Shown here one piece after another: positions 3,376 through 3,742 of a DNA stretch of 23,240 bases. A program made the translations under genes and the position numbers. The DNA is from a virus: UHGV virus genome UHGV-0143097, one strand, 5' to 3'. Position 1 is the stretch's first letter; the number at the start of each line of letters is the position of its first letter. The notes beneath the pieces were generated by a model. It was not told where the DNA came from, ran no database searches, and was given only the letters and a program-made list of their open reading frames with translations.

Positions 3376-3424
3376 TTTGCTGCTCCTCATCATATCGACC
3401 CTGCAAGGCCGATTAGTTTCTCCA

Positions 3425-3512
3425 CAAAACAGAGAAGAACACCTGCGGTGGCAGCCGCCCGGATGGATTGAGTTATGAGCCCGTCGTCCGGTGATGCTCT
3501 TCTCTGTTTTGT
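3425..3512. repeat. 15-bp perfect inverted repeat flanking a GC-rich noncoding segment
   Basis: ACAAAACAGAGAAGA at 3425-3439 and its exact reverse complement TCTTCTCTGTTTTGT at 3498-3512; further stems follow, such as GGTACCAG / CTGGTACC at about 3523-3557. Confidence 0.5.
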
Positions 3513-3742
3513 AAAAAGAGCGGTACCAGCCGGAAGCAAGGGTACAAACTGGTACCGCCAGGACTACACACAGCATAAAGGTGTGGTGCCGGGTGCCTCC
3601 CGGTGCCTGGCGAAGGTTGCACACCAGGCGGGTGGGTATCCACAGAAGGTCGACTGTCAGCTTCAACCTTAACCCGCGTGCGCTGAGCCGCATTCACCAC
3701 AACGCTAAGGATTCTCTCTGGTTGAAAATACTTAGCTGTTAT

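Follow-up and report, generated by a model that had tools for sequence, protein, structure and literature searches.

A stretch upstream of yfdP in an SfV-type prophage probably encodes a divergent STnc100/PasD-type small RNA and a separate leader hairpin

Three prophage small RNAs (sRNAs) that have been described separately bear on the DNA examined here. sRNA-17 of Escherichia coli K1 strain RS218 is a 193-nucleotide (nt) RNA of an mEp460-like prophage, characterized by 5'/3' rapid amplification of cDNA ends (RACE) and northern blots, for which the authors reported no Rfam homolog (PMC7719688, Front Microbiol 2020). Canonical members of STnc100 (RF02076) overlap the Hfq-bound sRNA EcOnc27 and are grouped with EcOnc27/sRNA103; the related PasD sRNAs (PasD1/PasD2) are Hfq-dependent (bioRxiv 10.64898/2026.05.13.724894; PMC12711010). 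In EDL933, STnc100 is documented by RNA-seq plus one northern blot. We looked at a stem-rich segment next to the yfdP-like gene of the UHGV virus genome UHGV-0143097; the whole stretch of DNA analysed, 23,240 nt, is called the window below. This segment belongs to the leftward early operon of a prophage of the SfV/ST64B/mEp460 type, where it forms the non-coding leader from the immunity region to yfdP. Taken as a whole, our data are best explained, with good though not full confidence, by an sRNA gene on the minus strand plus a separate hairpin in the yfdP leader. We place the sRNA gene in the prophage STnc100/PasD family as a divergent member, lying in the slot of sRNA-17 and sharing both its ends.

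We compared the segment with Rfam. A scan of the window at gathering thresholds returned the lambda cIII thermometer only, and STnc100 became visible in E-value mode only, as a match at 3725-3511 on the minus strand with 45.6 bits (E-value 1.3e-8 locally, 4.3e-7 for the whole window). The homologous leaders of related phages match STnc100 below the threshold in the same way, at 35-46.5 bits. Among the relatives, the SfV leader is 98% identical to the window, an E. coli chromosomal locus is 99% identical and reaches 46.5 bits with STnc100, the Salmonella phages ST64B and 118970_sal3 are 76-78% identical, and Cronobacter phiES15 has a homologous leader with a sub-threshold STnc100 match. The likeness to the canonical family lies in the common motifs GGUGAAU ... 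ACCGGGAGGCACCCGGCACCA, both present in the window, in a five-helix architecture whose covariation is retained, in a terminator at the 3' end (13-bp stem plus UCUUUUU) and in the location on prophages. The differences lie in the genomic position, the canonical copies belonging to the late region, where they are found near Q or 3' of stx2B, whereas the window copy is in the early-left leader; in the first hairpin, which is CCCCC/GGGG in canonical copies and GCGGC in the window; and in an RprA-like linker present in the window RNA. Moreover, some canonical copies, notably those of the CCUUU-hairpin subgroup, carry a sigma-70 promoter of their own, TTGAC-N17-TAnnnT, directly upstream, whereas a consensus scan of the minus strand over 3700-3830 showed no promoter-like site upstream of the window core. 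Since it has no promoter of its own, the RNA is probably transcribed from the early-left promoter. As an observation on the wider family, in some viral contigs 4-6 cores of the STnc100 type form an array with a spacing of about 250 nt (L015, 2325-3351; L069, 4381-5460 and 8379-8516).

The comparison with sRNA-17 allowed us to propose the ends of the window RNA. The ends of sRNA-17 were derived from the primers given in PMC7719688 and not from the RS218 genome sequence; the RACE-mapped 5' end is CGUUGUGGUGAAUGCG... / CGUUGUGGUGAAUGCGCAGG... and the 3' end is ...CUGGUACCGCUCUUUU. The first 16 nt of both RNAs are the same, as are 47 of the last 48 nt. By analogy with these ends, positions 3704-3514 of the minus strand would constitute a structured sRNA of about 191 nt, made of a five-helix core, a linker and its own intrinsic terminator, with a 3' end predicted at about 3514. 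Both RNAs also lie in the same slot and on the same strand, in the leader between repressor and yfdP of mEp460/SfV-type prophages, and share the closing helix as well as the leader hairpin that follows downstream. The core interior of sRNA-17 is not alignable with that of the window by sequence, but our covariance model R1, described below, does align both RNAs; the link depends on R1 alone, the Rfam STnc100 model giving no match to the mEp460 locus at E-values up to 0.1. Among the differences, sRNA-17 is devoid of the ACCGGGAGGCACCCGG and of the UGCUGUGUGUAGUC block of the window RNA. The forward primer of the published quantitative reverse transcription PCR is located about 250 nt before the 5' end mapped by RACE (PMC7719688); therefore, a longer precursor of sRNA-17 must exist. 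In the window, the hairpin abutting the 5' side of the core is predicted to belong to such a precursor or leader, upstream of the mature 5' end, and in ST64B a different hairpin, GAUAAGAGUU...AACUCUUAUC, takes its place.

We then asked how well the core structure is conserved. The shorter GC-rich palindromes that a previous reading of the DNA from its letters alone (the sequence-only reading) had listed turned out to be helices of the core. Variants were gathered from viral contigs and each was folded independently by minimum free energy (MFE). Most of the variants that retain the AGGCA hairpin fold like the window core and have a similar architecture, namely a closing helix of 7-9 bp (GUUGUGGUG/CACCACAAC), three unpaired bases, then Pa, P3, P5 and P6, with a variable interior of the P3 arm and with P6 (CCGGG-AGGCA-CCCGG) abutting the closing helix. 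P3 covaries, being GGGU/ACCC in the window, GGAA/UUCC in L017, GGGG/CCCC in phiES15 and GACG/CGUC in L270, and P6 becomes GGUGG-AGGCA-CCACC in L270, L299 and L348 while the loop stays the same. A first core alignment (A1; MAFFT and RNAalifold, 14 core variants) gave 14 pairs only, because the variable interior was misaligned, and it was replaced by a model-guided alignment. The covariance model R1 was built from alignment A3, which contains five sequences of the window variant only. R1 scores the window core at 150.5 bits, finds canonical STnc100 copies over all 124 positions (E-values 1e-8 to 1e-15), and finds the sRNA-17/mEp460 type at an E-value of about 4e-4. In the R1-guided alignment of 55 full-length family members, 94.5% of the cells of the core pairing were paired, compared with 36-49% when the pairing was slid and 70% in shuffles. 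Results showed compensatory change in 24 of the 31 core pairs, and cells changed on both sides numbered 343 versus 115 +/- 8 in shuffles, with none of 500 shuffles as high.

The 3' part of the RNA consists of a linker and a terminator. The stem GGTACCAG/CTGGTACC noted before is present and longer than had been claimed, having 10 perfect bp (3520-3529 / 3549-3558) and 13 bp as RNA. As the STnc100 match finishes with the GGTACCAG hairpin and UCUUUUU after it, this stem is an intrinsic terminator. It differs by one loop mismatch from the terminator at the 3' RACE end of sRNA-17, and ST64B and phiES15 have different stems with a U-tract at this position. A simple terminator scan did not pick up 3513-3558 because the loop, 15-19 nt, exceeds the 8-nt limit of that scan. 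Directly upstream, 14 nt of the linker (3562-3575) are identical to nt 61-74 of MG1655 RprA, in the block UGCUGUGUGUAGUC, which in RprA as in the window RNA stands directly 5' of the terminator. In local alignments with MG1655 RprA, the identical stretch measures 14 nt in the window, 18-19 nt in phiNP and phiES15 and 26 nt in L270, where it runs into the terminator bases (GCCCAUC). The 26 nt of this L270 early-left sRNA, AUUGCUGUGUGUAGUCUUUGCCCAUC, are identical to RprA of E. coli K-12, which implies that a 3' sRNA module has been exchanged between phage and host chromosome. The Rfam RprA model (RF00034) matches the phiES15 homolog at 41 bits (threshold 70) and has no match in the window at E-values up to 10; the 5' two-thirds of RprA, where the region pairing with rpoS and hdeD is situated, is absent from the window RNA. 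The sequence UGCUGUGU is retained before the terminator in many early-left variants with differing cores; neither canonical STnc100 nor the sRNA-17/mEp460 and L254 types have it. The linker is a candidate for a shared seed or Hfq-binding module. The RprA literature that we searched states no role for nt 59-78, and a scan of genome contigs with the 14-mer GTGGTGAATGCGGC gave chance matches only, in unrelated phyla.

The second element is found past the terminator and before the yfdP start codon. The perfect inverted repeat of 15 bp pointed out previously is indeed present, and a repeat search extended its arms to 25 nt (3424-3448 / 3488-3512, 84% complementary). As RNA it forms a hairpin with a stem of 20-25 bp, whose 25-bp fold has -48.2 kcal/mol and a z-score of -7.0, none of 200 shuffles being as good; its base pairs with the U-tract of the terminator. 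RNAalifold applied to 20 variants (alignment A2) gave 29 pairs, 8 of them compensatory, and the apical domain, GACGGGCUCAUAACCCAAUCCA, is highly conserved. Paired cells amount to 96%, compared with 40-52% after sliding, and cells changed on both sides are 31 versus 9.8 +/- 2.3, with none of 500 shuffles as high. An unrelated long hairpin is found in the same place in L252 and L277, and also in L093, L255 and L323, while the hairpin is absent where kil replaces yfdP. Rfam has no match for it.

Both elements act on the minus strand; the G-U pairs of their stems would become A-C mismatches on the plus strand. The 341-nt stretch folded as minus-strand RNA gives -140.5 kcal/mol (z-score -5.24), compared with -124.8 kcal/mol (z-score -2.14) as plus-strand RNA. 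The stem-rich non-coding segment is real and holds two conserved minus-strand RNA structures; of the possibilities raised by the sequence-only reading, a structured RNA is supported, with the correction that there are two separate elements rather than one. The alignments with related prophages keep the stems of both with compensatory changes. Nothing was found in support of a double-stranded DNA site for protein binding.

The modules are conserved across phages of Escherichia, Shigella, Salmonella, Cronobacter and Citrobacter. The synteny is always the same: the element follows the repressor/early-left promoter and precedes the first early-left gene, which is mostly yfdP and is kil in phiES15. 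Among 5426 complete E. coli genomes, 2785 have a match and 1814 carry most of the element. The K-12 prophage CPS-53 does not have it, yfdO abutting the yfdP ribosome-binding site; K-12 data sets are therefore uninformative on this RNA. In the window, the order on the minus strand is the S24-peptidase repressor, a terminator, a promoter-like site, orf33, the non-coding stretch, yfdP, yfdQ, the HD hydrolase, xis and int (Table 1). The promoter-like site is probably the early-left promoter feeding the RNA elements, and ST64B, mEp460 and phiNP have the same promoter layout, with operator-like palindromes. The yfdP gene has a ribosome-binding site GAGGAG (3388-3383) before its ATG (3375-3373), and ST64B and phiNP have other GC-rich hairpins where the window has its third small hairpin.

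Table 1. Positions of the RNA elements and neighbouring features in the window
Feature	Position	Strand	Basis or remark
S24-peptidase repressor gene	5119-4445	-	
Terminator of the repressor gene	4433-4414	-	
Strong sigma-70-like promoter, TTGACA-16-CATAAT	4378..4405	-	Directly past the repressor terminator; promoter scan
orf33	4272-3976	-	Matches phrog_3195 over its full length
5' hairpin GCUAAG...CUUAGC	3704..3736	-	Abuts the core; -12.9 kcal/mol, z-score -5.75
Five-helix, cloverleaf-like core	3580..3703	-	Rfam STnc100, model R1, covariation, MFE folds of homologs
Core closing helix	3703-3695/3588-3580	-	
Core hairpin Pa	3691-3676	-	
Core arm P3	3675-3671/3633-3630	-	
Core arm P5	3629-3605	-	
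Core hairpin P6, loop AGGCA	3603-3589	-	
Mostly unpaired linker, UUUAUGCUGUGUGUAGUCCUG	3559..3579	-	Directly 5' of the terminator
Intrinsic terminator, stem GGCGGUACCAGUU/...CUGGUACCGC then UCUUUUU	3513..3558	-	13-bp stem; repeat search and fold
Conserved yfdP-leader hairpin, about 90 nt	3424..3512	-	Fold and alignment A2; corresponds to the 15-bp inverted repeat
Third small hairpin	3394..3413	-	Flanked by the leader hairpin and the yfdP ribosome-binding site; predicted fold
yfdP-like gene, 120 amino acids	3013..3375	-	phrog_204; first gene past the RNA elements
Genes 3' of yfdP: yfdQ (DUF2303), HD hydrolase, xis, int		-	

By considering these results together with what was published for sRNA-17, whose ends and expression were established experimentally in PMC7719688, we propose the following sequence of events. 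Transcription would start at the early-left promoter (4405-4378) and produce the sRNA as part of a longer RNA, this precursor would be cut at the base of the closing helix, and the RNA would end at its own Rho-independent terminator. The released RNA may then act in trans as a base-pairing sRNA, which is the default expectation because its relatives are Hfq-associated. In cis, the terminator would limit read-through into yfdP-yfdQ-yfdR-xis-int. The leader hairpin, standing at the 5' end of the yfdP message, might set the stability or processing of this mRNA, acting as a 5' stem-loop or offering a substrate of the RNase III type.

Several points weigh against this explanation. The STnc100 score is 1.4 bits under the gathering threshold of 47, so that membership by threshold is not reached. 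The core interior of sRNA-17 differs from that of the window, with 140 identical positions in 214 aligned columns, and identity is thus not kept over the whole length; sRNA-17 is also devoid of the UGCUGUGU block. The evidence of expression comes from relatives (EDL933, EcOnc27, PasD and sRNA-17), and expression of the window variant is presumed by analogy with them. Sites complementary to the linker within the window do not exceed chance. The alignment used for covariation was fitted to R1, which biases it toward the structure, although the margin is large nonetheless. The role suggested for the leader hairpin in yfdP mRNA stability or processing is a guess, and the rise of yfdP in the sRNA-17 mutant could be read-through from the inserted cassette.

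In a different and, we believe, unlikely explanation, the leader acts purely in cis: terminator and fold would attenuate or insulate early-left transcription into yfdP-xis-int in the manner of the lambda tL terminators, the RNA being a by-product with no function in trans. When the core of sRNA-17 was swapped for a resistance cassette in RS218, in whose lysogen yfdP is silent, yfdP went up about 100-fold and yfdR was also up (PMC7719688); the primers of that paper indicate that the terminator was left in place. Both genes sit immediately downstream, therefore a cis effect is likely, and this result counts for our preferred explanation too. The fixed position between the early-left promoter and the first gene, though the downstream genes differ, the maintenance of terminator function while its sequence is replaced, and the lack of a detected promoter of its own fit this explanation as well. 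On the contrary, a terminator alone leaves unexplained a 124-nt core of five helices with 24 covarying pairs and an invariant AGGCA loop, and equally the conserved RprA-like block, and does not account for the canonical relatives overlapping Hfq-bound EcOnc27 or for the Hfq dependence of the PasD sRNAs. Coding of a small protein appears very improbable, either by the plus-strand open reading frame (ORF) 3475-3672, which is phrog_3651-like, or by the minus-strand ORFs annotated by PGAP as a frameshifted hypothetical protein. Two ORFs do match PHROG families of unknown function (phrog_3651 on the plus ORF, E-value 1.7e-40; phrog_33599 on 3390-3539 of the minus strand), PGAP puts a frameshifted pseudogene over the region, and the ATG and first 12 codons of the plus ORF are conserved, with entropies of 0.25, 0.27 and 0.42 at codon positions 1, 2 and 3, a weak third-position excess. 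The 162-amino-acid ORF of phrog_3651 type is nevertheless split between two frames in the window, the plus ORF runs through the linker in another frame than its ST64B counterpart and ends after 28 codons in L270, and in ST64B a 1-nt deletion leads the minus ORF 3473-3700 into a stop. The variable columns pair compensatorily, as RNA helices would; Pfam is empty for all overlapping ORFs, and PHROG families merely collect annotated ORFs. We therefore rejected the coding readings, no overlapping ORF being conserved, in line with the earlier statement that the segment lacks a credible ORF; most simply, the frameshifted hypothetical protein of PGAP is a mis-called RNA. It is scarcely credible that the segment is an inert scar of recombination or a mosaic joint where phage modules meet. 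Homology does break at about 3560, mEp460 and Stx2c phages sharing only 3377-3560 with the window, and again near 3776-3812, and the core is swapped between phages, so the junction scar suggested earlier holds insofar as the segment is modular. Each module is conserved in the phages of five genera with compensatory changes, and is found in about half of the complete E. coli genomes; conserved and covarying modules are not debris, and covariation has already largely refuted a scar.

We also considered where the core might come from while keeping the sRNA gene as our preferred explanation. Possibly, and we hold this tentatively from sequence comparisons, the core is a tRNA-derived module in an exchangeable cassette, which RNase P or other tRNA-maturation enzymes would cut at the base of the acceptor-like closing helix, as they have to do with the tRNA-Arg found in this slot in sister phages. 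Scanning viral contigs for the 5' leader GUGCUCUCnnCGUU / GUGCUCUCnnCGUUGUGG returned 106 distinct leaders. About 30 copies among them carry a tRNA-Arg-type insert, and ARAGORN called tRNA-Arg(UCU) in all four such loci tested (L248, L249, L261, L356), with the first base right after CGUU; the cores of the remaining leaders, closed by GUUGUGG/CCACAAC, are STnc100-like, sRNA-17-like or of other cloverleaf-like kinds. That one slot and 5' leader can hold tRNA-Arg or other cores points to a small-RNA cassette that can be exchanged. L362 has the look of an intermediate, with acceptor GUUGUGGU/ACCACAAC, D-arm GCUCAGCGAGGUUAGAGC and T-arm GCCGGUUCGAAUCCGGC; at its 3' end, GCCGG-UUCGAAU-CCGGCACCACAAC can be aligned with ACCGG-GAGGCAC-CCGGCACCACAAC, the consensus of the SfV type, the difference being essentially in the loop only, and the window counterpart of that consensus is ...CACCACACC. 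Moreover, the core has a five-way junction and a connectivity resembling that of class II tRNAs, in which acceptor, D, anticodon, long variable and T arms meet, and the RACE 5' end of sRNA-17 is at the base of the closing helix. The window resembles the phage tRNA-Arg (UCU) loci in its 5' leader, which is the same, in a similar 3' trailer and terminator and perhaps in its connectivity, whereas its core has no anticodon loop, no T- or D-loop consensus and no CCA end. ARAGORN calls no tRNA in the window, L362, L331, L252 or L277, and Rfam gave no tRNA match at E-values up to 10 over 3200-3900 or up to 0.1 on the intermediates. The closing helix has 9 bp versus 7 and the P6 loop 5 nt versus 7, and the shared flanks may merely mark recombination joints. 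Given the lack of any tRNA call and the departures in helix and loop length, we regard descent of the core from tRNA and its processing by RNase P as doubtful, a lead and not a finding. A broader version seems unlikely to us, namely that the early-left leader is a modular cassette in which tRNA-Arg and tRNA-derived cores are interchangeable and excised by tRNA enzymes, the 3' module of the window having been captured from, or being shared with, RprA. If it were true, an induced phage would release an sRNA that borrows the Hfq-binding or target-pairing module of RprA, and the large STnc100 family would be one of tRNA-derived regulatory RNAs. In the early-left leaders of L362, L331, L352, L005 and L007, two cassettes can occur in tandem, and degenerate tRNA-like pieces with perfect T-arms (GGUUCGAAUCC, CUGGUUCGAUUCCAG) are present that no tRNA detector calls.

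RNAs of the STnc100/sRNA-17 kind are known, and the window variant is distinguished by its early-left position, by the RprA-like linker and by the second conserved element. Although present in so many E. coli genomes, the element goes there under the label of hypothetical protein or frameshifted pseudogene and is not annotated as an RNA. A single family with STnc100/PasD and sRNA-17 would link the three sRNAs, giving sRNA-17 a family and a structure. The position of sRNA-17 upstream of yfdP and yfdR also suggests that its reported effects on these "targets" may reflect location. Finally, the cassette, the RprA-like module and the second hairpin are leads that bear on how temperate phages make and exchange regulatory RNAs and on the gating of xis and int.

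We also noted other features around the leader. The repeat adjoining the segment, described previously as a 34-bp element, exists but is 35 nt long, with two copies that are 94% identical (3742-3776 and 13559-13593). Each copy is placed just upstream of a plus-strand gene, ORF81 (3813-4058, phrog_3311) and the SieB gene (13666-14247), respectively, and the repeat is also conserved in phiES15, sal3 and Klebsiella phages. Its plus-strand end has an extended -10-like TGGTATCCT, and its minus-strand end, ...CAGGCACAUAAC, is similar to the way the RNA cassettes end on their 3' side; the repeat may be a promoter of genes expressed in the lysogen or what is left of a collapsed cassette. ORF81 and the minus-strand ORF 3976-4272 (phrog_3195) are convergent and overlap by 83 bp, each with a full-length PHROG match.

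The region where the early-left transcript would start, 4295-4352 on the minus strand, contains GAACAGGCAGGACGCCCACGAAGUAGCCGCC.GGGGCAUAUGAAG..GGAUGAUUCG, kept in ST64B and phiNP despite different operators, and a hairpin CCNGG-GGCAUAUGAAG-CCNGG with a varying stem. The fold of this start region by itself was not significant (z-score -0.92). It could be a nut- or put-like antitermination signal letting the polymerase pass the sRNA terminator.

At a larger scale, positions 1-16208 of the window are composite. An SfV-like int-xis-yfdRQP-cI block (1-5120) is followed by Mu/P2-like tail genes (5416-10505; truncated tail sheath, tape-measure, DNA-circularisation) and, on the minus strand at 10513-16208, by a lambda-like exo/bet...cIII...sieB region with N and a second S24 repressor. 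This last block contains the lambda cIII thermoregulator RNA (RF01804; 12583-12641, minus strand, 88.5 bits), the sole Rfam match of the window above gathering threshold. In ST64B (L002), the rightward early region carries the Hfq-binding RNA isrK (RF01394) at 5231-5307 on the plus strand, with 64.3 bits, above threshold.

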